Below, piece after piece: positions 71 through 27,296 of a stretch of DNA of 34,532 nucleotides; positions within the stretch are counted from its first letter, which is position 1, and each line of letters starts with the position of its first letter. Below the pieces are notes generated by a model. The model was not told where the DNA came from. It searched no databases and saw only the letters and a list, made by a program, of their open reading frames with translations. The translations under genes and the position numbers were made by a program. The stretch comes from an uncultured bacterium (GTDB taxonomy: Bacteria > Lernaellota > Lernaellaia > Lernaellales > Lernaellaceae): the NCBI GenBank assembly GCA_964534375.1, contig CAZHPN010000051.1, forward strand, positions 1 to 34,532. The letters are read 5' to 3'.

Positions 71-1111
71 TCACTCGCGCAATTGCCGCAAATGGCTCGC
101 CAATTCGTCGGCGCGCAGCGGGCACATCCGGCAATGCTCGGGCGGCGGCTCGCCCCGCAAAAAGGCGCGGCGCAGCGCCCGGTAGGGCTCGCCGTTCCAG
201 ATCGCGCGCAACGACGCGTTGTGCACGTTGCCGGCCGGAAAACTGTAACGCTCGTTGCGGAACACCGCGTTGCAGCAGGGCCACACCTCGCCGCCCGCGC
301 GCGTGAAAAAGAGGCGCAGCGGGTGCGGGCAGCGGCCGCCGACGATCGCCTCGTACGGCAGCAGCGCCTTGACGCCGCGGTGGGCCGCCAGCGCTTGCGC
401 GTCGGCCAAAGCGCGCGACAGCCGCTCCGGCTCGTGGTAGGCGCTGCGCGCGTGCAGCGAAGCGTCCCACGCGACGAGGTGATTGAGCAGCAGCGTTTTG
501 ACGTTGAGGTCGGCGGCGAACTCGATCAAGCCGGGCAACTCGTCGAGGTTGTCGCGGTCGATGGTCGCGGCGATGCCGGCTTCCGGAACGCGCACGCCCA
601 TCTCGTATTTTCGCCGCGCCAGGTAGGCGAAGGCGTGTTCCGCGTCGGACACCGCCAGCCCGCGCCGGCGCGCCAGCGCCGCGGGCTCGATCGCGTCCAT
701 GCTGACGTTGAGGATCTCGACGCCGGCCGCCAGAAAGCGGTCGAGCAGCGCTTCGTCGAGCGTCAGGCCGTTGGTCGTGACTTCCACGCGGCAGCCGCAG
801 CTTTTCGCCGCTTCGACCAGCGGCCAGAAAAGCGGCGCGATCGTCGGCTCGCCGTGGCCGAAGGCGAACACCGTGTCGGCGGTGATGAAGAATTCGCGCA
901 GCCGTGCCAGGGTGTCGGCTTCCAAATCCGCCGGCGGGTTTTGTTCCGCATTCCAAAAATGGCGCGCGCAGATTGCGCAAACCCCGTTGCAGCGGTTGGT
1001 CGGCTCGACCGCGATCTGGCTCGGGTTGGCGCGAAACCGGGCCCGGCGCCAATAGATGTCCTGCGCCAGCGTGACGCGGTTGAGCCACTTGCGCCACGCG
1101 TGCGGCTTCAT
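71..1111 (-). CDS. radical SAM protein with C-terminal SPASM/twitch domain (346 aa)
   Basis: CxxxCxxC (CNGVCAIC), FGHGEP, TTNG; C-terminal CPHP...GEVWPCC...GNV...IWNG...CRMCP. ATG at 1111 overlaps the upstream TGA (ATGA, 1108-1111), so the track's extension to 1432 is not used. Confidence 0.9.
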   Translation of the reverse strand: MKPHAWRKWLNRVTLAQDIYWRRARFRANPSQIAVEPTNRCNGVCAICARHFWNAEQNPPADLEADTLARLREFFITADTVFAFGHGEPTIAPLFWPLVEAAKSCGCRVEVTTNGLTLDEALLDRFLAAGVEILNVSMDAIEPAALARRRGLAVSDAEHAFAYLARRKYEMGVRVPEAGIAATIDRDNLDELPGLIEFAADLNVKTLLLNHLVAWDASLHARSAYHEPERLSRALADAQALAAHRGVKALLPYEAIVGGRCPHPLRLFFTRAGGEVWPCCNAVFRNERYSFPAGNVHNASLRAIWNGEPYRALRRAFLRGEPPPEHCRMCPLRADELASHLRQLRE

Positions 1112-3948
1112 CGACGCGTTCCCGGCAGGTCGAGTTCCGCCAGCGTTCGCCGCAGCCGTTCGACGCCCTCGTAATTCGGGCAGCGGCGGCAAACGTCGGT
1201 CCACAGCGCGCCGCCGTCGCGCATACGCGTATCGCCGCGCCGGCGCATGTCGCGCGCCGCGAGCCGCAGCCGGTCGTATTCGTCGCTGCGCCACCACGCG
1301 GCGAACGAGCGTTCCGCCAGATTGCCGACCGGGCGCGGCGCGCAGCAGAAGCTCACTTCCCCGTCGGCCCACGCGCGGCTGAACACCCAGCCGGCCAGAC
1401 AGCCGACGTCGCGATAGCGTTCGCCGGTCCAATTCGCGCCTTCGCCGTGGCCGCCGGTCTGGAAGTCGATGTTTTCGACCACGGTCGCCCCGGTCGCCTC
1501 GACGATCCGTCGCGCCTCGGCCAACGCGCCGGGCAGGGCGGCCCGTCTCGCCGGCGGCACGGCGAGTTCCGCGTTGTAGGACTCGATCGCGGCGAGTTGA
1601 TAACGGACGTGATCGGCGCCGACGCCGGCGGCAAGGCGCGCAAAATCGACTATTTCATGGTCGTTGAGCGCGGTGACCACGTCGACCAGCACCAGCCGCG
1701 GTTTTTCTTTTTTCGCCGCGCGCCGCAAGTCGACCAGCCGCCGGGCCGCGGCCGCAAGCCGGCCGAACGCGGCGGGCGAAAGTTTGTCGTGCAGCCGGGC
1801 GAAGGTCGTTTCGCTCGCCGCGGAAAGCGAGATGTAAAGCATGTCGAGTTCGGCATCGACCAGGGCGCGGATTGTTTCCTCGGTCAGGCCGAGCCCGCCG
1901 GTGAACAGCGTGACGTTCATGCGCCGGTCTTTCAGCGCGCGCACCATGTCCAGCAGGCGCGGGTGCGTCAGCGGGTCGCCCTTGCCGGACAGCACGACGT
2001 CTTCCGTCGCGCCGAGCTGCGCCAGATCGTCGGCGAGCGCGAGGAAGGTGGGCCAGGCCATCGCGGCGTCGCGGTTGGCCGCCGTCAGCCGGTGCGGGTC
2101 GTCGCGCGCCGCGGCGAGCGGGCTGTGAAACCAGCAATACCGGCACTCGGCGTCGCAGCGGTTCGTCACATCGAGATGAAACGTGCGCGGGCCGACAAAC
2201 ACGCCGCCGGTGGCAGCGCCCAACGCGCGCAGCAATTCCGCCTCGTTGTCGCCGCGCGCCGCCGCCGCGAATTTCCACAGCGTCTGGCGCCAGCCGTCGT
2301 CGGCGAGGTCGAGCGCGACGCCCGCCGCCGCCGCCCGCTCGCGCGCCTGCGCCAGCGTCGCCGGCCAGCGCAGATGGATTTCCGCCAGCGGCCGCGGTTC
2401 GAGATGCGCCCACGCCGGATCGAGCGCGCGGCCCGTCGTGTCGCGGATCAATGCGAACAGCCGTTCGAGCCGGGCGATATTTTGGATCGTCGCCGGAACG
2501 CGAATCGTCGCCGTTGGCGGCAGTTCGCCGAGCCGGCGCATGACCGCGCGCCATGGTTCGGCGCCGTCGGCAGCTTCGTGGACGATTTCGTTGTCGCCAT
2601 GAAGGCGGAGTTCGGAATTGAACTTTAACACAGAGGCTTCGGATTGCGGATTGCGGATTGCGGATTGCGGATTGGGAATCCCAAATCCCGAATCCCGAAT
2701 CCCGAATCCCGAGCCCTGAATCCCGCCCCCCGCCTCCCGATAAACCGCCTCGACTTCCGCCAGCGCCGCGCCCCGCCGCGCGGCCTGCGCCATCCCCTCA
2801 ACGATCGCGTTCTCTTGCGGACTGAGGCTGCCGGCCAGGCGCATGACGGCCTGATTGCCGCCGAGGTTGTCGCAGATGCGGAAGCAGCCGGGCAGGGCGA
2901 AATCGATGTCGTGGCCGATGTTGCGCAGCCACGGGTCGTCGTAATTCAGGCGCAGTGTGCGGCGGCGAAATTCGTTCTGGCGCTCGCCGAACCAGACGGC
3001 GGGAAAATCCTGCCGTCGCAGGTCGCCGGCGGCGATGCGGTGCGACTTGAGGCAGCCGTGCACCTGGCCGACCGTCGTGATGCGCGTGAAAAACCAGCCG
3101 GCCGCGCAGGGGATCGAGCCGACGATGCCGTTGTCGAACACGCCCTTGACCGCGTCGATGTTTTGCAAGCGCCGCACGAACTGCTCGCGGTGCACGAACG
3201 GCCGGCCGTTGGTCGCCGACCCCGCGGCCAACCGGATGGCGCGCGCGATCTGCTGTTTGTCGAGCGTGAACACGTCGGTGCGGCGCGGGATCGGATCGAG
3301 GACGGCGAACTCGACTTCCTCGGCGCCGACCGCGCGGCCGTGCGCGATCATCTCGGGGATTTCCTCGAAGTTGAGCGCGCAGATCACCTCGTACAGCTTC
3401 ACGCGTGGCGTGGCCGAGCCGCGTTCCCGTTTGCGCTCGGCCAGCCGCGCCAGCAGCCGCGTCAGGTGGTGGAACGTCGCCTCCGTTTTGTTCGGATGCA
3501 GCCGCGCGTACGTGGCGCTGCGGCCCGCCCACAGCGAGACGATCAAGTGATCGAGGCCCGCGTCGATGAGCGACTCGACGAGCGCCTCGTCGGCCAGCGT
3601 GAAATTGGTGTTGAGGGTCACCGCGAAGCCGGCCGCCTTGGCCTCGCGGATCGCCGCCGGCAAATCCGCAAAACACAGCGGGTCGCCGCCGCCGCCGAGA
3701 AACAGTTCCTGCACGCGCGCCTCGCGCAGCGCCGGCAGCAGCCGGCGCACGAACGCGAGGTCGTGCGCGCCTTTTTCCAGCGTGTCGTAATGGTCTTCGT
3801 CGCGCAGCAGCGGGCTGCGCGCCCAGCAGCCGAGGCAGTTGTTGGTGCAGGCGTCGGTCAGATCGAGTTGCGCGACCTGCGGCCCGATCAGCGCCCGATC
3901 GCCCAGCCGCATGCCCGCAAGACGAAGCGCGGTGTCCAGATTCAGCAC
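1108..3948 (-). CDS. tandem double radical SAM/SPASM protein (946 aa)
   Basis: Two CxxxCxxC motifs (LDLTDACTNNCLGCW; LDVTNRCDAECRYCW), each followed by GGGDP/GKGDP and a Cys-rich SPASM-like segment (CAAGW..GQVHGC..CFRIC; CLAGW..GEVSFCC..CRRC). GTG start with GAGGGG SD. Confidence 0.9.
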   Translation of the reverse strand: MLNLDTALRLAGMRLGDRALIGPQVAQLDLTDACTNNCLGCWARSPLLRDEDHYDTLEKGAHDLAFVRRLLPALREARVQELFLGGGGDPLCFADLPAAIREAKAAGFAVTLNTNFTLADEALVESLIDAGLDHLIVSLWAGRSATYARLHPNKTEATFHHLTRLLARLAERKRERGSATPRVKLYEVICALNFEEIPEMIAHGRAVGAEEVEFAVLDPIPRRTDVFTLDKQQIARAIRLAAGSATNGRPFVHREQFVRRLQNIDAVKGVFDNGIVGSIPCAAGWFFTRITTVGQVHGCLKSHRIAAGDLRRQDFPAVWFGERQNEFRRRTLRLNYDDPWLRNIGHDIDFALPGCFRICDNLGGNQAVMRLAGSLSPQENAIVEGMAQAARRGAALAEVEAVYREAGGGIQGSGFGIRDSGFGIPNPQSAIRNPQSEASVLKFNSELRLHGDNEIVHEAADGAEPWRAVMRRLGELPPTATIRVPATIQNIARLERLFALIRDTTGRALDPAWAHLEPRPLAEIHLRWPATLAQARERAAAAGVALDLADDGWRQTLWKFAAAARGDNEAELLRALGAATGGVFVGPRTFHLDVTNRCDAECRYCWFHSPLAAARDDPHRLTAANRDAAMAWPTFLALADDLAQLGATEDVVLSGKGDPLTHPRLLDMVRALKDRRMNVTLFTGGLGLTEETIRALVDAELDMLYISLSAASETTFARLHDKLSPAAFGRLAAAARRLVDLRRAAKKEKPRLVLVDVVTALNDHEIVDFARLAAGVGADHVRYQLAAIESYNAELAVPPARRAALPGALAEARRIVEATGATVVENIDFQTGGHGEGANWTGERYRDVGCLAGWVFSRAWADGEVSFCCAPRPVGNLAERSFAAWWRSDEYDRLRLAARDMRRRGDTRMRDGGALWTDVCRRCPNYEGVERLRRTLAELDLPGTRR
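2641..2724. repeat. 12 tandem heptamers: 5x GGATTG(C/G) then 7x GAATCCC-like, inside the CDS
   Basis: Read directly; 84 bp, in frame, encodes GIQGSGFGIRDSGFGIPNPQSAIRNPQS. Confidence 0.95.
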
Positions 3949-10281: not shown

Positions 10282-10354
10282 CCCCGCGCGCCCTGCGTTA
10301 TGATTCGTCGTCGCGACGGGCCGCCGAGGCCCGCGCGGGCTACGGAGGTTGCGC

Positions 10355-13351
10355 ATGGCCGGCCCGTTGCCGCAAATCGTCAAGTACCGGAAGTTTTTCG
10401 ATTTGATGCCGCACCGCGTGCGCGAGGTGCTGCTGGTGTCGTCGCTCTACGACGCGTTCATCCTTCAGGAAGACGGGCACCTCACCGAGCAGGTGTTTCT
10501 CGAATACAAATCGTTGGCGCTGTCGAGCGCGCCGCGGTTTACGCACGTGACGACGGGCGAGGAAGCGATCGCGGCGTTGCAGCGGCGGCGGTTCGACCTG
10601 GTGCTGGTGATGCCGCGGCTGGCCGACGTCAACCTGCTGGATTTCGGCCGGCGCGTGAAGGAACTGCGCACGGGCCGGCCCGTGGTCGTGCTGGCGTTCG
10701 ACAACCACGAAATCGAGGATCTCCGGTCGCTGGCCGACACCGATTGCATCGACGGCGTGTTCAGTTGGAACGGCGACGCGACGATCTTGCTGGCGATTAT
10801 CAAGTACATCGAGGATCGCCAGAACATCGACCACGACATCGAGTTGGCCGACGTGCGCGCGATTTTGCTGGTCGAGGATTCGATCCGTTACTTCTCGGAG
10901 TTTCTCGCCGATTTGTATCCGGTGATGATGAAGCAGTCGCAAAGCCTGTTCGCCGAGGGCCTCAACACGCTGCAAAAGCTGATGCGCATGCGCACGCGGC
11001 CGAAAATCCTGCACGCGGCGAACTACGAAGCGGCGATGGCGCTGTACGAGAAATACGCCGACAACATCATCGCGCTGATCACCGACGCCGGCTTTCCGCG
11101 CGACGGCAAACACCGGATGAACGCCGGCCTGGAACTGGCGGCCGAGATTCGCCGGCGCGCGCCGGATATGCCGATTCTCTTTCAATCGGCCAACGAGGAT
11201 TTCGCGTCGGCGGCCCGCGTGTTGGGCGCAATTTTCCTCAACAAGAACTCGGCTTCGTTGCTGCACGAGATCAACGAGTTTTTGCAAAACTACCTCGGCT
11301 TCGGCGAGTTCGTCTTTCGCATGCCCGACGGCGAGGAGATCGCCCGCGCGACCGATTTGCGCGAGTTCGAGCTGGAGTTGGAGACGATCCCGCTCGAGTC
11401 GTTCGAATATCACGCGCGGCGCAACCATTTTTCCAACTGGCTGATGGCCCGCAGCGAATACGAGTTGGCCGCCAAGCTGCGGCCGAAGAAGGTCAGCGAC
11501 TTCCTCACGCTCGACGAGGTGCGCCGGTACGTGGTCCGCGAAGTGCGGCTGCTGCGCCGCGGCGGCGGCGAGGGCGTCATCTCCGATTTTTCGCTCGAAC
11601 GCTTTGAGCCGGACAACCTGTTTCAGCGCATCGGGACCGGCTCGCTCGGCGGCAAGGCGCGCGGCTTGGCGTTCCTCAATTTGCTGCTGACGTCCGATCC
11701 GTACAAAGGCGCGCTCGCCGGCATGCCGGTCGAGATTCCGCAGAGCTTCGTCATCGCCACCGATTTGTTCGACCAGTTCATGGACGAAAACTCGTTGTAC
11801 GATTTCGTTTACCATTGCGACGACGACCAGGAAATCAATCGCCGTTTCTTCGGCGCCCGCCTGCCGATGCGGTTGATGGACGCGCTGCAGAAGATCCTCG
11901 ATTACGTCGATTGTCCGCTGGCCGTCCGTTCGTCGAGCCTGCTCGAAGACGACATGTCGCACCCGTTCGCCGGCATCTATCGCACGCTGATGCTCGCCAA
12001 CAACTCGACCAATCCGCTCAAGCGGCTGATGCAGCTTTCCAACGCGCTGAAGATGGTTTACGCCTCCACCTTCCACGCCGACGCCCGCGCGTATATCGAG
12101 AACACCGGCCACCGCATCGAACAGGAAAAAATGGCCGTGGTCGTCGAGCGCGTCGTCGGCCAGCGCTACGGCGGGCGCTTTTATCCGCATTTCGCCGGCG
12201 TCGCGCAGTCGTACAACTACTACCCCGTCGCGCCGCAAAGGGCCGAAGACGGCGTGGTGCAGATGGCGCTGGGCCTGGGCCGCATCGTCGTCGACGGCGG
12301 GCGATCGTATCGCTTCAGCGCGAAGCATCCGAACGTCGCGCCGCTGCTCGCCTCGCCCGCCGCGGCGATGAAGAATTCGCAGCACCGCTTTTATTCGCTC
12401 GACCTCGAAACCGCCGGCGACGATCCGCTCAACGTCGGCCCGGGCCACTTGAAGGTCTTCGACCTGGCCGCGGCCGAGGCCGACGGCACGCTGGCCCTGG
12501 TCGGCAGCCGCTACAACGTCAACGACGACGTGCTGACCGAGAACACCGACGCCGCCGGCCCCTGGGTCATCACCTTCAGCAATCTGCTGAAATACAACAG
12601 CGCGCCCGTCGCCGCGGCGTTAAATGAATTGGTCGACCTGGCCGCCGCGGGCATGGGCTGCGCGGTCGAGATCGAGTTCGCCTGCGACATGGGCGATTTC
12701 GGCCGGCGCTTGCGCCGCGGCGAAACACCGCGGCCGCCGACGCTGTACGCGCTGCAATTGCGCCCGATCGTGACCAAGTCGGAGTTGACGGCGGTCGAGG
12801 CCGGCGCGTTCGCGGAAGACGAGGTGATTTGCCGCTGCAAACGCGCGATGGGCCACGGCAGCTATTCCGCCCTGCAGGATATCGTCTACGTCAAACGCGG
12901 CGAGTTCGATCCGGCGCAATCGCCGGCGATTGCCCGCGAGGTCGGCGCCGTCAACCAGTTGCTGACGCGCGAAAAACGGCCGTACGTGCTGATCGGGCCC
13001 GGCCGCTGGGGCAGCAGCGACTTCTGGCTGGGCATCCCGGTGACCTGGGCGCAGATTTCCGGCGCGAAGATCATCGTCGAGGCCTCGCCCGGCGATTACC
13101 TGGTCGACCCGTCGCAGGGCGCGCACTTTTTCCACAATATCACCTCGCTCGGAATTGGGTATTTCACCATTCCGCCGGGCGCGCACAAAGGCAACGGGAA
13201 CGAGGAATTCGTCGATTGGGCCTGGCTCGACGCCGCGCCGGCCTTCCAGGAGACGCCGCACCTGCGGCATGTGCGCCTGACGCATCCGCTGGCCGCGATG
13301 GTCGACGGCCGCAAGGGCCTGGGCGTCATCGCCGATTCAACCCCGGAATAA
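10355..13351 (+). CDS. receiver-like domains fused to PEP/pyruvate-binding (PPDK_N, ATP-grasp) domain protein (998 aa)
   Basis: GGAGG SD; ILLVEDS..Y.S and ITD receiver-like segments; GSLGGKARGLAF, PLAVRSSSLLED..PFAGIY.T, EKMAVV, ALGLG, VEIEFA, LQLRP; C-terminal GPGRWGS and SQGAHFF. Confidence 0.9.
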   Translation: MAGPLPQIVKYRKFFDLMPHRVREVLLVSSLYDAFILQEDGHLTEQVFLEYKSLALSSAPRFTHVTTGEEAIAALQRRRFDLVLVMPRLADVNLLDFGRRVKELRTGRPVVVLAFDNHEIEDLRSLADTDCIDGVFSWNGDATILLAIIKYIEDRQNIDHDIELADVRAILLVEDSIRYFSEFLADLYPVMMKQSQSLFAEGLNTLQKLMRMRTRPKILHAANYEAAMALYEKYADNIIALITDAGFPRDGKHRMNAGLELAAEIRRRAPDMPILFQSANEDFASAARVLGAIFLNKNSASLLHEINEFLQNYLGFGEFVFRMPDGEEIARATDLREFELELETIPLESFEYHARRNHFSNWLMARSEYELAAKLRPKKVSDFLTLDEVRRYVVREVRLLRRGGGEGVISDFSLERFEPDNLFQRIGTGSLGGKARGLAFLNLLLTSDPYKGALAGMPVEIPQSFVIATDLFDQFMDENSLYDFVYHCDDDQEINRRFFGARLPMRLMDALQKILDYVDCPLAVRSSSLLEDDMSHPFAGIYRTLMLANNSTNPLKRLMQLSNALKMVYASTFHADARAYIENTGHRIEQEKMAVVVERVVGQRYGGRFYPHFAGVAQSYNYYPVAPQRAEDGVVQMALGLGRIVVDGGRSYRFSAKHPNVAPLLASPAAAMKNSQHRFYSLDLETAGDDPLNVGPGHLKVFDLAAAEADGTLALVGSRYNVNDDVLTENTDAAGPWVITFSNLLKYNSAPVAAALNELVDLAAAGMGCAVEIEFACDMGDFGRRLRRGETPRPPTLYALQLRPIVTKSELTAVEAGAFAEDEVICRCKRAMGHGSYSALQDIVYVKRGEFDPAQSPAIAREVGAVNQLLTREKRPYVLIGPGRWGSSDFWLGIPVTWAQISGAKIIVEASPGDYLVDPSQGAHFFHNITSLGIGYFTIPPGAHKGNGNEEFVDWAWLDAAPAFQETPHLRHVRLTHPLAAMVDGRKGLGVIADSTPE

Positions 13352-19622: not shown

Positions 19623-21113
19623 TCACTTCGCTTCGAGCGCGTCGATCTTCACGGCGCCGATCATGCGCAAGATATCGACCTGTTTGTCGAGGCCGCCGTT
19701 GACGATGCGCAAGTGCGTGGCGTCGGCGGGATATTGATCGAGTGTGGAGTCGACCGCCACCCATTCGCCGACGTAGACGCCGTTCCAGGCGTGGTAATAG
19801 AACGAGCCGTTGGCGTACACCAGGCCCGCGTACGTTTGCGCCGGCAATCCGGCGGCCCGGGCCAGCGCGGTGAACAGCGAAGCGTGTTCGTTGCAGGCCC
19901 CGCGGCGCAGCAGCAGCACTTCCCGGGCGCTGGTGATCGAGACGACCGCTTTCTTTTCCAGGTTCTTGTAAATCCAATCGTTGATCGCGCGCGCGGCGGT
20001 CACCGCGTCGGCGCCTTCCGGCACGATTTTCCGGGCCTGCTCGACGATCGCCGGGTCGTCGCTTTCGATCAGCGGCTCCGGCTTCATGAATTTCCACAGC
20101 GCCGCGTCGTCGCCGCGGTACGGAATCTTGAACGCGCCCTTGCTTGGCGCCGGTTTGACCTGCACCGTCAGCACGCCGTCGGCGAAAGTCTGGCGGTCGT
20201 CCGCGAGCGGCAGGTCGTCGAACTTGACGCCCGTCAGACGCACCTTGACCAGCTTGGCGTCGCGGGCGTTCGGTATCGGCTTCTCGACGCGCACCTGCGC
20301 GAGCTCCGGCAGGTCGGGCGGTTTCGCGCTCCAGTTGGCGGTGAGCGCCGTCTGGCGCGGCTCGCGGATCAGCGTGAAGGTGGCCATCGTTTCTTCGAGC
20401 ATGCGGCCGCGTTCGTCGACGATGGCGACACTCGTCATGCCGAAGACCTCGACCTCGACCCGGTAGGCGACCAATTTCCCCCCGGACGGCGTCGGGCGCT
20501 CCAGGCGCTGCGTCACGCGAACCTTGGCTTTCTCGTAACGGCGCGTGGTCGGATCGAAAAACGGCGCATCGGCGGTCGCGCCGACGTGAAGCCCGCCCTC
20601 GTGGACGAGCAAGAGGGCGATGTCGTCTTGCATCATCGGCGGTTCGGGCAGGTGCAGCGTCTGCTTCTGCACGCCCGCCGCGGTTTCGATTTCGAGGTTG
20701 ATGTCGCTGCCGCGAACGGTGGCGATGATCTTGAATTTCATCTTGTCCGAACTGGTCACCAGGTCGATGTATTGCAGCTTGTGGTCGGGCCCCGTGAGGA
20801 TCTTGCTCTCGGTGCGAATTACCTGCTCCTCGCCCAGCTTGCCGAGTCGCATGTACGTCGATTCGTCGGTCTGGAAGCCGACCGAGGTCTCGGTGCGTTT
20901 CGAGACCGTGTAGCCGATCTTGGTCTTTTCGCCGTTCGGCATCGCGATGTAGATGCCGAACCATTCCTGCGCGTTCTCGTCGTTGTCCTCGGTTGCGGCG
21001 ACCGCCGTCGCCAGCCCCGGCGTTTCCGCGGCGGCCGTCGTTTGCCGATACGTGAAAAAGCCGAGCAAGCCCAGCCAGACCGCCAGCACCATCCAGCGCA
21101 CAGGTTTTCTCAT
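19623..21113 (-). CDS. exported transglutaminase-like domain protein (496 aa)
   Basis: GGAGG SD, N-terminal signal/TM; GACNEHA..F.ALARAAGLPA, YHAW, WVAVDST (Cys-His-Asp triad). Confidence 0.9.
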   Translation of the reverse strand: MRKPVRWMVLAVWLGLLGFFTYRQTTAAAETPGLATAVAATEDNDENAQEWFGIYIAMPNGEKTKIGYTVSKRTETSVGFQTDESTYMRLGKLGEEQVIRTESKILTGPDHKLQYIDLVTSSDKMKFKIIATVRGSDINLEIETAAGVQKQTLHLPEPPMMQDDIALLLVHEGGLHVGATADAPFFDPTTRRYEKAKVRVTQRLERPTPSGGKLVAYRVEVEVFGMTSVAIVDERGRMLEETMATFTLIREPRQTALTANWSAKPPDLPELAQVRVEKPIPNARDAKLVKVRLTGVKFDDLPLADDRQTFADGVLTVQVKPAPSKGAFKIPYRGDDAALWKFMKPEPLIESDDPAIVEQARKIVPEGADAVTAARAINDWIYKNLEKKAVVSITSAREVLLLRRGACNEHASLFTALARAAGLPAQTYAGLVYANGSFYYHAWNGVYVGEWVAVDSTLDQYPADATHLRIVNGGLDKQVDILRMIGAVKIDALEAK

Positions 21114-21272
21114 CGCGACCTCCGTTGCGTCGTAAATTATCGTAATATGCGATTGCCGCGGGCGCAATCGGCGCAGCGTTCGCCGAACTGGATTTTCCGT
21201 GAATCGCGCACCCTGGGCGGCGACGCCGCCCAGGGTGCGTCGCGCTTGACTGGCCTTTTGCCCGTGTAGTAG

Positions 21273-21563
21273 ATGCTGGTTGCCGGCGAAAAAATGTCGG
21301 CGGAAAGGGCCGTCAGGGTCGCGGGAGCGGTCACGTTCAAGAAAGCGGTCGGCGCCGTGCGGCGGCTGGGGCGTGGCCTCCAGACGCTCGTGGTGCAATT
21401 TCTGCTCGCGTTCCTGTACGTGTTCGGTTTTGGTCTGACGAAAGCGTGGATGCTGATTTTTCATCGCCGCCTTTACCGTTTCGGCGCGGCCGAGGCGGCG
21501 TCGTTTTGGTTGACGCCGAAGGACGGCGAATTCGACGCCCGCGACAGCGAGCGCCAGAGCTAA
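21273..21563 (+). CDS. SxtJ-like small membrane protein (start 21273 or 21294)
   Basis: LG..QT....LLAFLY..GFG.T...SFW......ERQS pattern and position upstream of a DUF5989-like gene and a carbamoyltransferase. Confidence 0.7.
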   Translation: MLVAGEKMSAERAVRVAGAVTFKKAVGAVRRLGRGLQTLVVQFLLAFLYVFGFGLTKAWMLIFHRRLYRFGAAEAASFWLTPKDGEFDARDSERQS

Positions 21564-21581
21564 CCGGAGAGGAGTGACGCT

Positions 21582-21743
21582 GTGAGCCGGGTATGGTTGA
21601 TCTTGCGCGAGACGTGGCGGCTGATTCGTCGCAACAAGGTGTATTTTCTCATCCCGATCTTCATCGCTTTGGGAATCATCGCCTTTCTCGTCTACACGGT
21701 CGGACCCGCGACCGTCATTGCGTTCATGTACGCCGGCATCTGA
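21582..21743 (+). CDS. DUF5989/SxtK-like small membrane protein (53 aa), not in the ORF track
   Basis: AGGAG SD + GTG; MSRVWLILRETWRLIRRNKVYFLIPIFIALGIIAFLVYTVGPATVIAFMYAGI*; stop lies 1 nt before the next ATG. Confidence 0.85.
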   Translation: MSRVWLILRETWRLIRRNKVYFLIPIFIALGIIAFLVYTVGPATVIAFMYAGI

Positions 21744-21744
21744 C

Positions 21745-23442
21745 ATGCACGTGCTGGGTCTGTCGTGCTACTACCACGACGCGGCCGCTTGCCTGGTGCG
21801 CGACGGCGCGGTCGTCGCAGCCGCGCAGGAAGAGCGGTTCAATCGCCGCAAATACTCGCCCGATTTCCCGCTCGCGGCGATCAACTATTGCCTGCAAGCC
21901 GGCGAGATCACGATCGACGATGTCGACCACGTGGCGTTTTACGAAAAACCGTTTCTCAAGCTGGAGCGCGTCCTGCTCCATCACGTCCGCGCCTACCCGC
22001 GATCGTTCCGCCTTTTCCTGCAAACGTTGCCGGGCTGGCTGCGCGAGCGTTTGACCCTGCCGATCACCCTGAAGAAAACCCTCGGCTACGGCGGCCGCGT
22101 TCATTTTCTCAGCCACCATTTGGCGCATGCGGGCAGCTCGTTTCTCGCGTCGCCGTTCGAGGAAGCGGCTATCCTGACCGCGGACGGCGTTGGCGAATGG
22201 GCGACGACCACGGTCGGCCACGGGCGCGGAAGCGGGATTCAGTTTCTTCGCGAACTCCGCTACCCCGATTCGCTCGGCCTCTTGTACACCGCGGTCACCA
22301 CGTACCTCGGCTTCGAAGCCCTCGCCGGCGAAGGCAAGGTGATGGCCCTGGCCGATTTCGGCGAGCCGGCGTTTCTCGACCGGTTTCGCGCGCTCGCCCG
22401 TCTGCGCGCGGACGGCAGTTTTCGCCTGGACCGGCGGTATTTCCCATTCTACGAGGGAACGCGCATGTTCGGCCGGCGCTTCGTCGCCGAATTCGGACCG
22501 CCGCGCGAGGCCGGCAGCGAGCTGACCCAGCGCCATCGAGACATCGCCGCCAGCTTGCAGCGCTTCCTCGAAGAAGCGTTGCTGAACATGGCGCGGACGG
22601 CTTTCGAGGCGACGCGTTCGCGTCATTTGTGCTTGGCCGGCGGCGTCTGCCTGAACGTCGCCGCGACCAGCCGCATCCGCGAGGAAACGCCGTTCGCCGA
22701 CCTGTTTATCCAGCCGGCGGCGGGCGACGCCGGCGGGGCGCTGGGGGCGGCGCTCTTCCTGTACCACGCGCTGACCGGCGCGCCCCGCGCGGCGGCGCTG
22801 GCCAACGTGTACGTCGGCCCGAACTTTTCGGCGGCCCACATTCGGCGGGCGTTGCGCAGCAGCGGGATAAAGTTCGCCGAGTGCGCGACCGACGAGCTGG
22901 TCGACCGCGTCGGGCGCCGCATCGCCGCGGGGAAGATCGTCGGGTGGTTCCGCGGGCGCATGGAATTCGGCCCGCGGGCGTTGGGTTGCCGCAGCATTCT
23001 GGCCGATCCGTCGCGCGCGGATATGAAAGACAAGCTCAACGCCGAGGTCAAGCACCGCGAGAGCTTTCGGCCGTACGGCGTGAGCCTGCCGCGGGAGGAC
23101 GTCAACGCCTATTTCGAACTGGACCGTCCGTCGCCGTTCATGCTGCAGGTCGCGCGGGTGCGGCCCGAGCAGCGGGCGCGGATCCCGGCCGCGCTGCACG
23201 TCAACGGCACGTCGCGCATCCAGACGCTGACGGCCGAGCAGGATGGCGCGTTCTATGCGCTGGCGAAAAAAATGGGCGAGTTGAATGGCGCGCCGCTCGT
23301 GCTCAACACCTCGTTCAACGACCGCGGCGAGCCGATCGTTTGCACGCCGGAAGACGCGCTTCGCAGTTTCCAAAACATGAGCATCGATTGCCTGGCGCTC
23401 GAAAACTTCCTGCTCGAGAAAGACGCGTCCGGCGGCGCGTGA
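21745..23442 (+). CDS. carbamoyltransferase, NodU/CmcH/TobZ family (565 aa)
   Basis: LGLSCYYHDAAACL, QEERF.R.K, HHLAHA.S.F, DGVGE, SLGLLY, EGKVMALA, LAGGV.LN, PAAGDAG, GRMEFGPRALG.RSI, KHRE.FRP, HVNGT.R.QT, LNTSFN. Confidence 0.95.
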   Translation: MHVLGLSCYYHDAAACLVRDGAVVAAAQEERFNRRKYSPDFPLAAINYCLQAGEITIDDVDHVAFYEKPFLKLERVLLHHVRAYPRSFRLFLQTLPGWLRERLTLPITLKKTLGYGGRVHFLSHHLAHAGSSFLASPFEEAAILTADGVGEWATTTVGHGRGSGIQFLRELRYPDSLGLLYTAVTTYLGFEALAGEGKVMALADFGEPAFLDRFRALARLRADGSFRLDRRYFPFYEGTRMFGRRFVAEFGPPREAGSELTQRHRDIAASLQRFLEEALLNMARTAFEATRSRHLCLAGGVCLNVAATSRIREETPFADLFIQPAAGDAGGALGAALFLYHALTGAPRAAALANVYVGPNFSAAHIRRALRSSGIKFAECATDELVDRVGRRIAAGKIVGWFRGRMEFGPRALGCRSILADPSRADMKDKLNAEVKHRESFRPYGVSLPREDVNAYFELDRPSPFMLQVARVRPEQRARIPAALHVNGTSRIQTLTAEQDGAFYALAKKMGELNGAPLVLNTSFNDRGEPIVCTPEDALRSFQNMSIDCLALENFLLEKDASGGA

Positions 23443-23450
23443 GGCGCTCG

Positions 23451-24449
23451 TCAGTCGATCGCCGCGCCGAGCATGGCGCCGACGCGGTCCAGCAACGCCT
23501 GGTCGAAATTGATCGCCAGCATCTCCAGCGCCTCGGCGCGCGACAGCAGACCCAGGCGAATCAGCCGGCTCGCCTCGGCGTGGTAGTGCGAATATCCGAA
23601 ATCTTTGATCGTCCGGTGGACGGAAAGAAAATTGAGATAACAATTGGTCGTCTTCGCCGGGTAGCTCAGGCGCGGATACCGCCACTTCAGTTCCCGCGAA
23701 ATCAGCGCGACGTACTCTTCGGGTTCGGAATTCAGGAACCAATGCGGCGACAGCACCAGGCATTTGTGCCGCTTCTTCGCGCGGGTCAGCGCTTCTTCCA
23801 TGCTCCGCGGAAAATCGCGATATTGCGGATCGTCCTTCAGCGAGGCGAGGAATTCCGCCGTCGCCTTGCCCATCGCCGCGAATTCCGGCGAACTGATGCT
23901 GCACGCGCATTTGGACATCACATCCTGCCGCGTCGACTGGCCTTTGGTCCAGCCGGCGATGATCATGGGAATGTCATAGCGCGCCGCCACGTCGAAGGCG
24001 AGTTGCATGTACCAGATCGAGCAGGGGTGGCACAGCACCGCCCGCGAACCGGAGCGCACGATGTTCGCGAACATGTTGCGCATATACGTCGACCGGAAGA
24101 AGAGAAAATCGACGCCCAGCGCCTCGACGGCGCGCCGTACGTTGTCCAGCGCGTCTTCGGTCTCGAAGCCGTGGTCGAAAGTGAAGGCCAGCACCCGCTG
24201 TTTGTAGCGCTTCACCATGTAGTAGAGACTCGACGTGCTGTCCTTGCCGCCGCTGCACATGACGAGGCAGTCGTAGGCGCCGCGGCCCTGATGTTGTTTG
24301 AGGATCTTTACAAAATCGGTCTCGAGCAAATCGCGTTCCGCCGGCCGCGACGCGGCGGCCTCGGCGGCGCGGCAGAGGTTGCAGACGCCGGCGTCATCCA
24401 GCCAAATATCCGGTTTGCTTTCCGGCAGCACGCACCTTTGGCAGAGCAT
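23451..24449 (-). CDS. PP-loop ATPase, N-acetyl sugar amidotransferase (WbpG)-like (332 aa)
   Basis: N-terminal CQRCVLP...GVCNLC, YDCLV..SGGKDS, LAFTFDHGF, CHPC, NC, IR.G..SR.EAL; ATG at 24449, 11 nt after the tusA-like stop. Confidence 0.85.
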   Translation of the reverse strand: MLCQRCVLPESKPDIWLDDAGVCNLCRAAEAAASRPAERDLLETDFVKILKQHQGRGAYDCLVMCSGGKDSTSSLYYMVKRYKQRVLAFTFDHGFETEDALDNVRRAVEALGVDFLFFRSTYMRNMFANIVRSGSRAVLCHPCSIWYMQLAFDVAARYDIPMIIAGWTKGQSTRQDVMSKCACSISSPEFAAMGKATAEFLASLKDDPQYRDFPRSMEEALTRAKKRHKCLVLSPHWFLNSEPEEYVALISRELKWRYPRLSYPAKTTNCYLNFLSVHRTIKDFGYSHYHAEASRLIRLGLLSRAEALEMLAINFDQALLDRVGAMLGAAID

Positions 24450-24460
24450 GAGTTTGCACC

Positions 24461-24712
24461 TTATGGGAGGTTGGCCCGGCGCACCAGCAGCCGCCATTGG
24501 CGGCCGACCGGTTCGCGGGCCAGGAGTTCGTGGCCGTCGGCGACGACGCCGTCGGCGACGTTCGTCGCCGGTTCGCCGTCGTCGACGAGGATCGCCAGCA
24601 CCGCGCCGGACGCCAGACCTTCCAGCCGCACGAGGGCGCGCGCGACGTTGTTCGGGCAGGGCACGCCGGTGAGATCGAGCGTTTCGTCGAGCGGGGGCGC
24701 TGCGCCGTTCAT
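24461..24712 (-). CDS. tusA: TusA/SirA-family sulfur carrier (83 aa)
   Basis: LDLTGVPCP motif, L..L..G.VL.ILVDDGEP..NV, WRLLVRR; ATG overlaps the desulfurase TGA (ATGA). Confidence 0.9.
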   Translation of the reverse strand: MNGAAPPLDETLDLTGVPCPNNVARALVRLEGLASGAVLAILVDDGEPATNVADGVVADGHELLAREPVGRQWRLLVRRANLP

Positions 24713-25911
24713 GACGCGGCTCCCCGGGGCTCGTTGCGCAGGCGGCGAACGGCCAGCGCCAGAAGCGCGGCCGCTTCGTCGAGTTCCGCCGCCGTCGTCC
24801 AGCGGCTGAGGCTGAAACGGACCGCGGCCAGGGCGTCGTCGTCGGAGCGGCCGATCGCGCGCAGGACGTGGCTCGGATCGCTCGTATCCGACGAACAAGC
24901 CGAGCCCGCGCCGACCGCAATTCCGTCCTCGTCGAGTTCGCGAACGAGCCGCCGGCCTTCGACGCCGCGGAACGAGACGTTGAGATTGTTGCAGAGCCGC
25001 CGCTCGTGCGGGCCGTTCAGCAGCACGTCGGGAATCGTCCCTTCCATGTTTCGCCAGAACGCCCACCGCAAGCGATCCATCTTCGCGGCGTCGGCGTCCG
25101 CGGCGATTTCCACCGCCTTGCCGAATCCGACGATGCCCGGCGTGTTAAGGGTTCCCGCACGCCGATGCCGTTCCTGGCCGCCGCCGTGAAACAGCGGCAT
25201 CAGCCGCACGCTGTCGCGGACGTACAACGCGCCGACTCCTTTCGGGCCGTGCAGCTTATGGGCGTTGAGGCTCACCAGATCGAGATGCTGTGCGGCGACG
25301 TCGAGCGGTTCCAGCGTCAGGCATTGGCAGGCGTCCGTATGAAACGCGACGCCGTGTTCGCGGCACAAGCGGCCGATGTCGGCGATGGGCTCGATGCTGC
25401 CGATCTCGTTGTTGGCGTACATCACGGAAACCAGAATCGTTTCCGCCGACAGGGCGCGTTCGACGTCCGCCGGATCGATGAGGCCGGCGCCGTCGACGGG
25501 GAGGCGGGTGACGCGGCAACCGAGACTTTCCAACCAATCGGCGGCGCGCAAGACGGTCGCGTGTTCCACCGCCGACACGATCACGTGCCGGCGGCGGTCG
25601 CCGTGGGCGAAGAAGACGCCCTGCAGCGCCAAATTGTTCGCTTCGGCTCCGCCGGAGGTGAAGACGATTTCATCCGGCGCCGCGTGGATCCGGCCGGCGA
25701 CGATTTGCCGCGCGCGCTCGACGCCCTTGGCGGCGGCGACCCCGTCCCGGTGGACTGAGGACGCGTTTGCCGACGATTCGGAAAAATACGGGGCCATGGC
25801 CGCGATGACTTCCGGCGCGGTTTTTGTCGTCGCGGCGTTATCGAGGTAAATTCTCACCGGTCCGGTCGCGCGGGCAAGGCTGACGGCGGTGTTTCGCGTC
25901 TCGTTCGACAT
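24709..25911 (-). CDS. iscS: cysteine desulfurase (IscS/NifS group I) (about 400 aa)
   Basis: IYLDNAATT, FTSGG.EANN, EH..V, MYANNEIG, HTDACQ, AHKLHGPKGVGALY, GGGQE..RAGT.N, catalytic GSACSS. Confidence 0.93.
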   Translation of the reverse strand: MSNETRNTAVSLARATGPVRIYLDNAATTKTAPEVIAAMAPYFSESSANASSVHRDGVAAAKGVERARQIVAGRIHAAPDEIVFTSGGAEANNLALQGVFFAHGDRRRHVIVSAVEHATVLRAADWLESLGCRVTRLPVDGAGLIDPADVERALSAETILVSVMYANNEIGSIEPIADIGRLCREHGVAFHTDACQCLTLEPLDVAAQHLDLVSLNAHKLHGPKGVGALYVRDSVRLMPLFHGGGQERHRRAGTLNTPGIVGFGKAVEIAADADAAKMDRLRWAFWRNMEGTIPDVLLNGPHERRLCNNLNVSFRGVEGRRLVRELDEDGIAVGAGSACSSDTSDPSHVLRAIGRSDDDALAAVRFSLSRWTTAAELDEAAALLALAVRRLRNEPRGAAS

Positions 25912-25971: not shown

Positions 25972-27021
25972 TTATTGCAGCACGTCGAACTTCGCCAGTT
26001 CCTCGGCCAGTTTGGTCGCGACCACGCAATTTCCGCTGGCGGTCGGATGCGTATTGTCGATTTTTTGAATGCACGGCTCGCCGCCGCATCGTCCGTCCAG
26101 CAGACCGCGCAGGTCGAGGCAATGAATGCCGAGTTCGGTCAACGAAGCGGCCATGGGACGGGATCGACTCTGTTCGTGAAGAAAGACCGTGAAAAAACCT
26201 TGCGAATTGAACCGTTTTTCAAACTCCGCCTTCGCCTGGGCGAGAATCCGGACGGTCAGCCGGCGATGCGCCGCATCCGACGCCCGCCATAACACGCCGT
26301 CGGAAAAAACATCAAAATGACTCGGCCCGGCGCGGCCGAATTTCGCGCCGTCCCCCGCCGATTTTTTCCCCTCGGCGTACATGCCGGCGCGTTGCAGTTT
26401 TCCGTCCTCGGTCGGCACGTAACGCGGATACGGTCGCAGATGCAAATCCGTCAGGAACGGCCAGCCGGCGGCGCGGTCGATGTGGCAATCGAAGAAAAAA
26501 TAGATGACGAAGCCCTGTCGCTCGGCGATGCCCGGCGGAAAACGCGGGTCCGTCATCAGCGCCAGGAAATTGCCGGGACCCCACCCGGGCACCGCGTAGT
26601 TGTAGACTTTGATTTTCTTGCCGCCGATCACTTCGGCAAAGAACGACGGAATAGTTTCATCGTCCGCCACATTGATGCCGTACACCATCGAATCCACGGC
26701 AAAAAGCGCGAAGGATCGATACTCGTTCTCCGCCGGTTGCACCGTGACGCGCCGGCCGAACTCGTCCGTGCGCTGGACGACGTCGGGGTCGCCGGGGAGC
26801 CCATCGCGAAACCGAATCCGGAGTTCCGCATTGGCGCGTTGATTGCAGCCGAGCCAGTCGTCCCGCTGCTCGAATCGTTGCCCGATGACGGTCATGAACG
26901 ACGGGACGTAGGCGACGACGCGTTTCGCCGCCGACACCAAGCCCACGGCCACGACCGCGCCCAACGCCAAGGCGATGAGCGGCTCGGGAACTCTGCGATG
27001 CCAAAGGCTGAACCGCGCCAC
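25972..27021 (-). CDS. membrane-anchored SGNH/GDSL-like hydrolase (about 349 aa; start uncertain)
   Basis: N-terminal TM; block I-like FAVDSMVYG, block II YNYAVPGWG, C-terminal DNTHPT..GN; GTG at 27021 preferred over the track start. Confidence 0.7.
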   Translation of the reverse strand: MARFSLWHRRVPEPLIALALGAVVAVGLVSAAKRVVAYVPSFMTVIGQRFEQRDDWLGCNQRANAELRIRFRDGLPGDPDVVQRTDEFGRRVTVQPAENEYRSFALFAVDSMVYGINVADDETIPSFFAEVIGGKKIKVYNYAVPGWGPGNFLALMTDPRFPPGIAERQGFVIYFFFDCHIDRAAGWPFLTDLHLRPYPRYVPTEDGKLQRAGMYAEGKKSAGDGAKFGRAGPSHFDVFSDGVLWRASDAAHRRLTVRILAQAKAEFEKRFNSQGFFTVFLHEQSRSRPMAASLTELGIHCLDLRGLLDGRCGGEPCIQKIDNTHPTASGNCVVATKLAEELAKFDVLQ

Positions 27022-27296
27022 GAATCGTTTCCACCCCGCAAATTGTCGCCGGCCGCAAAAAAACGCCCCGAAATCATGCGCTCTTCGCGACGAGAACGTC
27101 AACGGCCGGAACGCGCCCGAACACGGCGGGGCAAACCACGGGATTTCTCTCGAGCGGTCGCCCGCGCCGCCGCGACGCGCGAATCCCGGCGACTGCCGGC
27201 CGAATGTTCTGTTTCTGCCGGGAACTCCTTGAACCTGTTGTTTCGCCCGCGGTTCTGTTACCATCGCCAACTTCAAAAACCGCAACCGGGTTGTCG

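Follow-up and report, generated by a model that had tools for sequence, protein, structure and literature searches.

PP-loop enzymes adenylate ureido and amide carbonyls, as is the case for argininosuccinate synthetase, MnmA/TtuA, CtaC, and the amidotransferases, and enzymatic oxygen-to-sulfur exchange outside transfer RNA (tRNA) is rare. CtaC, the closthioamide thioamide synthetase of Ruminiclostridium cellulolyticum, is an iron-sulfur (Fe-S) PP-loop enzyme published in 2019 (PMC6772006). According to the available text of that paper, CtaC binds a [4Fe-4S] cluster and thioamidates a carrier-bound peptide with ATP and sulfide; it has ATP-site residues D77/S78 and predicted cluster ligands C154, C157, and C284, which were mutated to alanine (PMC6772006). 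CtaC is found mainly in anaerobes, with stand-alone homologs near nonribosomal peptide synthetases (NRPSs). The same text is silent on NRPS-embedded homologs and describes a CtaC gene cluster that encodes no sulfur-mobilizing enzyme, the native sulfur source being left open by its authors (PMC6772006). Here, we describe a gene cassette for a CtaC-like PP-loop enzyme with an adjacent cysteine desulfurase and TusA-family sulfur carrier in an uncultured Lernaellaceae bacterium (phylum Lernaellota; GenBank assembly GCA_964534375.1). It lies in a stretch of 34,532 nucleotides (contig CAZHPN010000051.1, positions 1 to 34,532 of the forward strand), hereafter the window.

Four other described kinds of system bear on this locus. 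In the Escherichia coli IscS-TusA-TusBCD-TusE-MnmA relay, a class-I desulfurase forms a persulfide that passes to the TusA cysteine and from there to a PP-loop thiolase. TtuA/TtcA-type enzymes take their sulfur from TtuB thiocarboxylate or from sulfide, not from TusA. The N-acetyl sugar amidotransferases of TIGR03573 (WbpG, WbuX, PseA) include the Legionella structure 8WEX, which has a tetracysteine CXXC...CXXC zinc site and an SGGxDS PP-loop in the published account available to us (PMC10607449). In the available gene tables of the saxitoxin cluster, sxtI-sxtJ-sxtK-sxtL encode a carbamoyltransferase, two small hypothetical proteins, and a GDSL lipase (PMC2679770, PMC2684587).

The window has about 65% G+C and therefore many long spurious open reading frames (ORFs), and its minus-strand genes were read directly. 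Four genes on this strand are co-directional and encode, in order, an SGNH/AlgX-like protein, the desulfurase, TusA, and the PP-loop enzyme. The last three are as follows:

24709..25911, minus strand: class-V (NifS/IscS-like) cysteine desulfurase, 400 residues; ATG at 25911, TGA at 24709; PF00266
24461..24712, minus strand: TusA-family sulfur carrier, 83 residues; ATG at 24712, TAA at 24461; PF01206
23451..24449, minus strand: PP-loop ATP pyrophosphatase, 332 residues; ATG at 24449, TGA at 23451; TIGR03573, below cut-off

The desulfurase stop and TusA start overlap as ATGA, and 11 nucleotides separate the TusA stop from the start of the PP-loop gene; an initial annotation, made from the DNA letters alone, had this layout correct to the base. 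The desulfurase-TusA-PP-loop arrangement is far beyond chance, and the same order recurs in other phyla. It is moderately probable, in our judgment, that the PP-loop protein is a [4Fe-4S]-type, ATP-dependent oxygen-to-sulfur exchanger with its own desulfurase-TusA supply, acting on a carbamoyl or amide carbonyl and not on tRNA. The initial annotation had proposed that a sulfur donor has replaced the nitrogen donor and that the substrate is not tRNA; that proposal now draws support from motif, phylogeny, linkage, lineage, and co-variation.

The PP-loop protein is a member of a sister clade of the canonical N-acetyl-sugar amidotransferases and is not one of them. TIGR03573 is its only full-length family match, at 143.9 bits against a cut-off of 203.2, and all 38 relatives scanned also fall under that cut-off (best 191.6); a true TIGR03573 member in genome G013 scores 361. 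At E <= 0.001 the protein has 2363 homologs, with identities of 59% or more throughout the best 120. Named homologs among these 120 come from metagenome-assembled genomes and mostly carry the label '7-cyano-7-deazaguanine synthase' (P0029, P0040, P0055, P0083, P0088, and P0095 are QueC-labeled members). QueC models match only the N-terminal PP-loop part, and weakly (25.8 bits), and the public label is probably a misannotation. When the library is clustered at 50% identity, this tight family collapses to one representative, and the next full-length representatives are 26-49% identical.

Relatives at about 30% identity have the PP-loop domain embedded among NRPS condensation, adenylation, and carrier domains. 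Among eleven long relatives scanned, eight are NRPS proteins, one is a B12-radical-SAM fusion, one is a PilZ fusion, and one has no Pfam match. The NRPS-embedded relatives are P0150, P0151, P0154, P0177, P0180, P0182, P0188, and P0197 (also P0193 and P0209), and they may be in-line thioamide-forming domains. Of the two remaining fusions, P0156 and P0152, one joins the enzyme to a B12-binding radical-SAM protein and the other to an N-terminal PilZ domain, a cyclic di-GMP receptor; both keep the CxxC described below.

A maximum-likelihood tree ('quick', without a mixture model, with some long-branch joins flagged) splits six canonical amidotransferases from a 48-row clade with an SH-aLRT support of 100. 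The clade unites the window family, stand-alone relatives, and NRPS-embedded domains, and within it the window protein groups with support 99 in a set of seven family rows and one long-branched stand-alone row (P0133). The initial annotation had named phylogeny against TIGR03573 as a check, and the enzyme falls outside the canonical amidotransferases and carries a CxxC...C motif that they lack.

Nine cysteine and PP-loop features are invariant in 81 of 81 family members: C3, C6, C23, C26, C65, the SGGKDS motif (66-71), C140, C143, and C270. By alignment, C3, C6, C23, and C26 form an N-terminal Zn ribbon that is common to canonical amidotransferases. C140, C143, and C270 are replaced in all four canonical amidotransferases aligned and are invariant in 20 of 20 diverse non-canonical relatives, and these three residues are putative [4Fe-4S] ligands. 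In 45 of 48 clade rows and in 125 of 149 representatives, the PP-loop is followed by a CxxC, which none of the six canonical enzymes has; in the excised NRPS-embedded domains, SGGxDS and CxxC are both kept in 10 of 10. Profile comparison by hhalign sets the CHPC of the window protein on the CFLC of the TtcA-like protein from the same genome, and the AGWTKGQ after it on TGHHRDD. The residues that correspond to those named for CtaC are D70/S71, C140, C143, and C270, and the distance from the CxxC to the third cysteine is 130 in both proteins.

An AlphaFold2 model of the enzyme, built on 17 sequences, has a predicted local distance difference test score (pLDDT) of 85 and a predicted template modeling score (pTM) of 0.86, with a disordered loop at residues 168-183. 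Its top Foldseek match is the Legionella amidotransferase 8WEX (E 6e-15; template modeling score, TM, 0.64). A second tier holds the [4Fe-4S] sulfurtransferases TtuA and NcsA at TM ~0.39, followed by LarE, YcfA, and QueC; the nitrile synthetase ArtA and argininosuccinate synthase are also among the matches.

The desulfurase matches PF00266 (E 5e-76), and the HK motif with its pyridoxal phosphate-binding lysine and the GSAC motif with its active-site cysteine were identified by eye. It scores under every NCBIfam equivalog cut-off, including those of IscS, NifS, and DndA (best NifS, 437 against 530.75), and is no named orthologue. TusA scores 50.3 bits on PF01206 against a cut-off of 28.6 and falls under the NCBIfam TusA and YedF equivalog cut-offs. 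Among 17 aligned cassette TusAs, C19, P20, N22, D44, and G46 are invariant, with C19 in a CPxN motif where the usual TusA motif is CPxP.

The assembly spans 6.3 Mb in 381 contigs and is 94% complete. It contains 14 PF00266 matches, five of them strong (contigs C26, C159, C38, C43, and the window's own, C51), and three TusA genes. NifU lies directly after the C26 desulfurase and MnmA directly after that on C159, so housekeeping genes do occur elsewhere, as the initial annotation had asked to be verified; since housekeeping-type copies sit on other contigs, the window desulfurase and TusA are extra copies. A TtcA-like gene is on C8, TilS is on C129, and hisF/hisA/hisH are clustered on C17. The window PP-loop gene is the sole WbuX-like gene in the genome. 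Contig C43 has a second desulfurase-TusA neighborhood (579-1667 and 2076-2276, both minus strand), whose desulfurase is 30% identical to that of the window (89 bits). NifU, MnmA, HisF (PF00977), and class-I GATase (PF00117) have no match on the window contig and none among the 27 window ORFs by Pfam, which bears out the remark in the initial annotation that no nifU, mnmA, or HisH/HisF-like pair is nearby. ThiI and dnd genes are absent from the window in a general Pfam scan of the 27 ORFs, no genome-wide search for them having been made.

A pattern scan of contigs from one genome per species gave 179 PP-loop relatives, and the best 80 of these 179 loci were analyzed. All 80 are at least 53% identical to the window enzyme and come from metagenome-assembled genomes, including Omnitrophota, Elusimicrobiota, Planctomycetota, Bacteroidota, Desulfobacterota, Myxococcota, Patescibacteria, and one Thermoplasmatota. 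Linkage was counted by tblastn with the window proteins at thresholds that we set; the counts are lower bounds, as divergent copies may escape. A TusA gene on the same strand ends within 200 nucleotides upstream of the PP-loop gene at 49 of the 78 loci with at least 300 nucleotides upstream. At the 72 loci with at least 1600 nucleotides upstream, a desulfurase is adjacent at 34; TusA and desulfurase are both adjacent at 32, TusA only at 13, and desulfurase only at 2. Sulfur genes occur in nearly every major branch of the family tree, and their absences are scattered. At Bacteroidota-type loci, desulfurase and TusA sit inside the carbamoyltransferase module described below, between a small membrane protein and the PP-loop gene.

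The window desulfurase scores 303-412 bits against 25 cassette-linked desulfurases of other genomes and 293 bits against its best own-genome paralog; the window TusA scores 46-85 bits against 24 cassette TusAs and 24-26 bits against its two own-genome paralogs. Because both score higher with the cassette copies of other phyla than with own-genome paralogs, they are dedicated lineages that travel with the PP-loop enzyme. The iscS-tusA linkage, which the initial annotation had flagged for checking, is thus conserved and of dedicated lineage, and it is absent from about one third of related loci. Given these absences, the sulfur genes are an accessory supply and not an obligate part of the system.

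The disordered loop of the PP-loop enzyme carries C181-x-C183, and its state follows the presence of TusA. Both cysteines are kept in all 51 enzymes with an adjacent TusA (51/51), and one or both are lost in 11 of the 30 enzymes without one. On a tree built without the loop columns, the loop state changes at least 9 times; in 7 independent contrasts on supported branches, TusA goes in the same direction in about 6 and in the opposite direction in none (sign test, median p 0.03). In our reading, this co-variation suggests that TusA hands sulfur directly to the C181/C183 loop.

From the gene content, motifs, fold, linkage, and co-variation given above, we infer cluster binding and the steps of sulfur transfer. 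The PP-loop enzyme would work like TtuA, TtcA, and NcsA, and most of all like CtaC: a carbonyl oxygen would first be adenylated, after which sulfide carried on the free iron of a cluster with C140, C143, and C270 as ligands would displace AMP. The desulfurase would take sulfur from cysteine and place it as a persulfide on TusA Cys19, and TusA would hand it over to the PP-loop enzyme, probably via C181/C183. Enzymes without the loop cysteines may use sulfide directly, as CtaC does in vitro.

Several points weigh against this reading. Neither TusA nor desulfurase is adjacent at 25 of the 72 loci, the closest relative of all (L002, 77% identity) is without both, and in a carbamoyltransferase-centered sample, 14 of 16 PP-loop loci are without both. 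The nearest solved fold is that of a nitrogen-transferring enzyme. C140/C143/C270 could bind zinc or be structural. The hhalign match to the genome's TtcA-like protein has a probability of only 40% and stops short of the third cysteine. The putative kinship with CtaC is drawn from motif numbering and from NRPS-embedded relatives. The carbamoyl group as the substrate is the most weakly inferred part, a tentative guess from the gene neighborhood.

A product free of sulfur would result if the enzyme were an amidotransferase that uses ammonia (converting carbamoyl to guanidino or acetamido to acetamidino) or a nitrile- or cyanate-forming dehydratase like QueC and HypE, with the desulfurase and TusA building or repairing a metal site or serving another enzyme. 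The best family and fold matches are N-acetyl sugar amidotransferases, the fold matches include ArtA, QueC, and argininosuccinate synthase, and one third of loci have no sulfur genes, all of which fit such an activity. We nevertheless consider it unlikely: the three cysteines are missing from canonical amidotransferases, and the way in which the loop cysteines vary with TusA suggests that sulfur is handed over directly. The one canonical gene whose surroundings were examined has HisF-HisH directly upstream, and no such pair is on the window contig. TusA is, to our knowledge, not known as an Fe-S assembly factor.

The initial annotation overlooked a carbamoyltransferase operon that converges on the PP-loop gene. 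The stop codons of the carbamoyltransferase and PP-loop genes are 8 nucleotides apart, and the two convergent operons together are the full cassette. Its remaining genes are as follows:

21745..23442, plus strand: NodU/CmcH/TobZ-type carbamoyltransferase, 565 residues; PF02543 E 2e-72, PF16861 E 8e-65
21582..21743, plus strand: DUF5989 small membrane protein, 53 residues; PF19451, 29.0 bits (cut-off 27)
21273..21563, plus strand: small membrane protein 'c3small', 96 residues (~89 residues from ATG 21294); hidden Markov model (HMM) of cassette homologs
25972..27264, minus strand: membrane-anchored SGNH/AlgX-like protein, first gene of the minus-strand operon; Atlas structure search

DUF5989 corresponds to SxtK; the window gene for it stops 1 nucleotide ahead of the carbamoyltransferase start. 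The SGNH/AlgX-like gene stops at 25972, 60 nucleotides ahead of the desulfurase start. Its own start is uncertain: the ORF extends to 27285 (437 residues), and homology in the long form begins at about residue 86, after a hydrophobic segment. For this protein, the SGNH/AlgX likeness comes from the Atlas structure search (TM 0.69-0.76 to eight clusters, five of which have SGNH/GDSL or AlgX on some members), and the protein has neither a Pfam match nor an NCBIfam model. Homologs of it adjoin the PP-loop gene in L002 (two copies) and L065, and SGNH-TPR proteins of other loci match Lipase_GDSL_2. The DUF5989 protein likewise has no NCBIfam model; an HMM built from its cassette homologs finds it at E 3e-21, the only genome match with E < 0.001.

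Clustering of neighbor genes identified the recurrent partners of the PP-loop gene. A carbamoyltransferase homolog of the NodU/CmcH type occurs at 56 of the 80 PP-loop loci; of the 48 loci whose two flanks are each at least 4 kb long, 37 have one. SGNH/GDSL-TPR proteins, one to three per locus, are present at 36 loci, and a small membrane protein of about 75 residues ending in ...RQS at 30. DUF5989 microproteins are also recurrent, and glycosyltransferases, epimerases, and radical-SAM enzymes are frequent. The conserved carbamoyltransferase partner points away from the N-acetyl-sugar substrate put forward by the initial annotation.

The carbamoyltransferase family has at least 564 relatives. 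Among the best 80 carbamoyltransferase loci, which were examined, a PP-loop gene is present at 16, the small membrane protein at 45, DUF5989 at 42, and TusA plus desulfurase at 2. The PP-loop gene occurs with 15 of the 18 closest carbamoyltransferase relatives (51-60% identity) and with 1 of the 62 more distant ones, many of which keep the small membrane proteins. Because the carbamoyltransferase family is larger and the PP-loop gene is confined mainly to its closest relatives, the PP-loop enzyme is an add-on to an older carbamoyl module, and on this ground the carbamoyl carbonyl is proposed as its target.

With a convergent, co-inherited carbamoyltransferase, two small membrane proteins, and an SGNH/AlgX-like protein as probable partners, the enzyme would most likely act on an envelope glycan or an exported metabolite, at the carbonyl of an amide or of a carbamoyl group (carbamate or urea), and the products would be a thiocarbamate, thiourea, or thioamide. 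A more specific version, in which the enzyme thionates the carbamoyl group installed by its partner carbamoyltransferase on an envelope glycan or exported metabolite to give a thiocarbamate or thiourea, a thiocarbonyl modification new to biology, is possible but doubtful.

The small membrane protein offers another candidate target. It consists of one hydrophobic helix with GFG(L/I)T and a conserved tail, W..A.GY..D....RQS, whose extreme end is nearly invariant (Q in at least 90%, S in 19 of 24); the conserved last residue suggests that the terminus itself is recognized or modified. An HMM from 30 cassette homologs finds the window protein at E 4e-16, its only significant match in the genome. 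No Pfam family matches any of 24 members, and the protein has no NCBIfam model. Atlas gives a weak lead to SxtJ (0.89); the Pfam SxtJ model matches 0 of 24.

The enzyme might accordingly install a thioamide or thiocarboxylate on the C-terminal tail (...RQS) of this co-encoded protein, much as CtaC acts on a carrier-bound peptide. The nearly invariant terminus and the frequent position of the small gene directly beside the PP-loop gene would suit this, and CtaC requires a protein-tethered substrate in the available text of its description (PMC6772006). Yet 45 of the 80 carbamoyltransferase loci have the small protein and only 16 have the PP-loop gene, which better fits an accessory subunit of the carbamoyltransferase, and the protein has neither a leader/core organization nor a carrier-protein fold. 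A protein substrate is therefore improbable.

A TtuA/TtcA-like thiolase that modifies tRNA or ribosomal RNA through a sulfur relay of its own is the least likely reading of all and strikes us as very improbable. The PP-loop and CxxC...C logic is the same, TtuA and NcsA are the second-best fold matches, and conservation across phyla is high (at least 53% identity), as might be expected with a macromolecular substrate. The fold similarity to TtuA/NcsA is nevertheless low (TM ~0.39 against 0.64 to the sugar amidotransferase), and the nearest relatives of the enzyme lie inside NRPS modules. As operon partners the gene has a carbamoyltransferase, glycosyltransferases, SGNH/TPR proteins, and membrane microproteins; MnmA, TilS, and a TtcA-like gene are already encoded elsewhere in the genome; and the family is patchy, occurring in 3 of the 17 genomes of the phylum. 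The cassette probably makes an undescribed oxygen-to-sulfur modification on a non-tRNA target in many uncultured anaerobes.

Other parts of the window include genes of less certain relation to the cassette. A 707-residue transglutaminase-like ORF (19623-21746, minus strand) was rejected as real over its whole length, since both small plus-strand genes lie across its upstream third; its probable start is the in-frame ATG at 21113, followed by a signal-peptide-like stretch, which leaves 496 residues with Transglut_core kept. Short transglutaminase-like matches also flank the cassette in loci L002, L028, L046, and L065. Radical-SAM/SPASM ORFs with overlapping boundaries occur at 71-1432 and 1108-3948 (both minus strand). 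The larger, of 946 residues, has two radical-SAM stretches, and at loci L027, L032, and L078 relatives of it are encoded a few kilobases away from the PP-loop gene (tblastn E 5e-53 to 1e-78). At 10349-13351 (plus strand), a 1000-residue ORF joins a response-regulator receiver-like stretch to a PEP-utilizing (PPDK_N) domain; this unusual fusion lies in a glycan biosynthesis neighborhood with DegT, GT1/GT4, and an ABC ATPase.

Two wetland metatranscriptome libraries (X5, X6) contain short exact contigs that map to 21200-21734, 23233-23426, 23981-24248, 25698-25898, and 25984-26190. They cover the small-protein genes, the 3' end of the carbamoyltransferase gene, and the PP-loop, desulfurase, and SGNH-like genes. 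DNA carry-over is possible, contigs do not by themselves demonstrate transcripts, and they are not counted as expression evidence; uncovered parts are uninformative.

Full-text literature, which leaves out subscription journals, yielded, among the matches listed, no paper on the combination of carbamoyltransferase, TusA, desulfurase, and PP-loop enzyme, and gave only the CtaC paper for an Fe-S AANH thioamide synthetase with NRPSs. A further candidate, PMC13185837, concerns TfuA/YcaO and is irrelevant. The initial annotation was aware of no described system of this type; an earlier one is CtaC, which in the available text of its 2019 description is an Fe-S PP-loop enzyme that forms thioamides on a substrate other than tRNA (PMC6772006). 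Four aspects appear to be new: a desulfurase-TusA pair as dedicated supply, the loop predicted to accept its sulfur, the link with a carbamoyltransferase/membrane-microprotein/SGNH module, and the breadth of the family in uncultured anaerobes. The cassette connects oxygen-to-sulfur chemistry with a carbamoyltransferase module that is widespread, occurring among others in Omnitrophota, Elusimicrobiota, Planctomycetota, and Bacteroidota, and the co-variation of the C181/C183 loop with TusA presence supplies a residue-level prediction. NRPS-embedded members of the clade would, if the proposal is true, be in-line thioamide-forming domains, and they could guide mining for thioamide natural products.

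Compared with the E. coli Tus relay, the window has no TusBCDE, and the acceptor is an Fe-S-type, amidotransferase-like enzyme instead of MnmA. The enzyme shares a PP-loop and a three-cysteine cluster motif with the tRNA thiolases TtuA, TtcA, and NcsA and with [4Fe-4S] LarE, its CxxC aligning with that of the TtcA-like protein; it differs from the thiolases in fold (TM ~0.39) and in a gene context that is not RNA-related. TIGR03573 is the best family and fold match, with a Zn tetracysteine ribbon and PP-loop in common, as in the available description of 8WEX (PMC10607449), and similarity extends into part of the C-terminal region. In contrast to canonical members, the window protein scores under the family cut-off, has the CxxC...C, and is set apart with a branch support of 100; it has no HisH/HisF partner, whereas the canonical gene at L094, in a genome of the same family, directly follows HisF-HisH. 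In make-up the window cassette resembles sxtI-J-K-L at the level of architecture, with the carbamoyltransferase and DUF5989 matched by their family models, and it differs in its PP-loop and sulfur genes, which are missing from the available sxt gene tables (PMC2679770, PMC2684587).

CtaC is the closest counterpart. Both proteins are PP-loop/AANH enzymes with SGGxDS and three equally spaced cysteines, and the ~30%-identical relatives of the window protein lie inside NRPS modules, while CtaC homologs lie near NRPSs in the available text (PMC6772006). CtaC acts on a carrier-protein-bound peptide, whereas the window has no carrier protein or NRPS and instead has a dedicated desulfurase-TusA pair and a carbamoyltransferase module. 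The cassette thereby offers a testable answer to the question of the native CtaC sulfur donor, namely a dedicated desulfurase-TusA relay. If the proposal is true, the cassette would show for the first time how sulfur natively reaches a thioamide synthetase of the CtaC type: from the desulfurase to TusA Cys19, on to a mobile CxC loop, and finally to cluster-bound sulfide.

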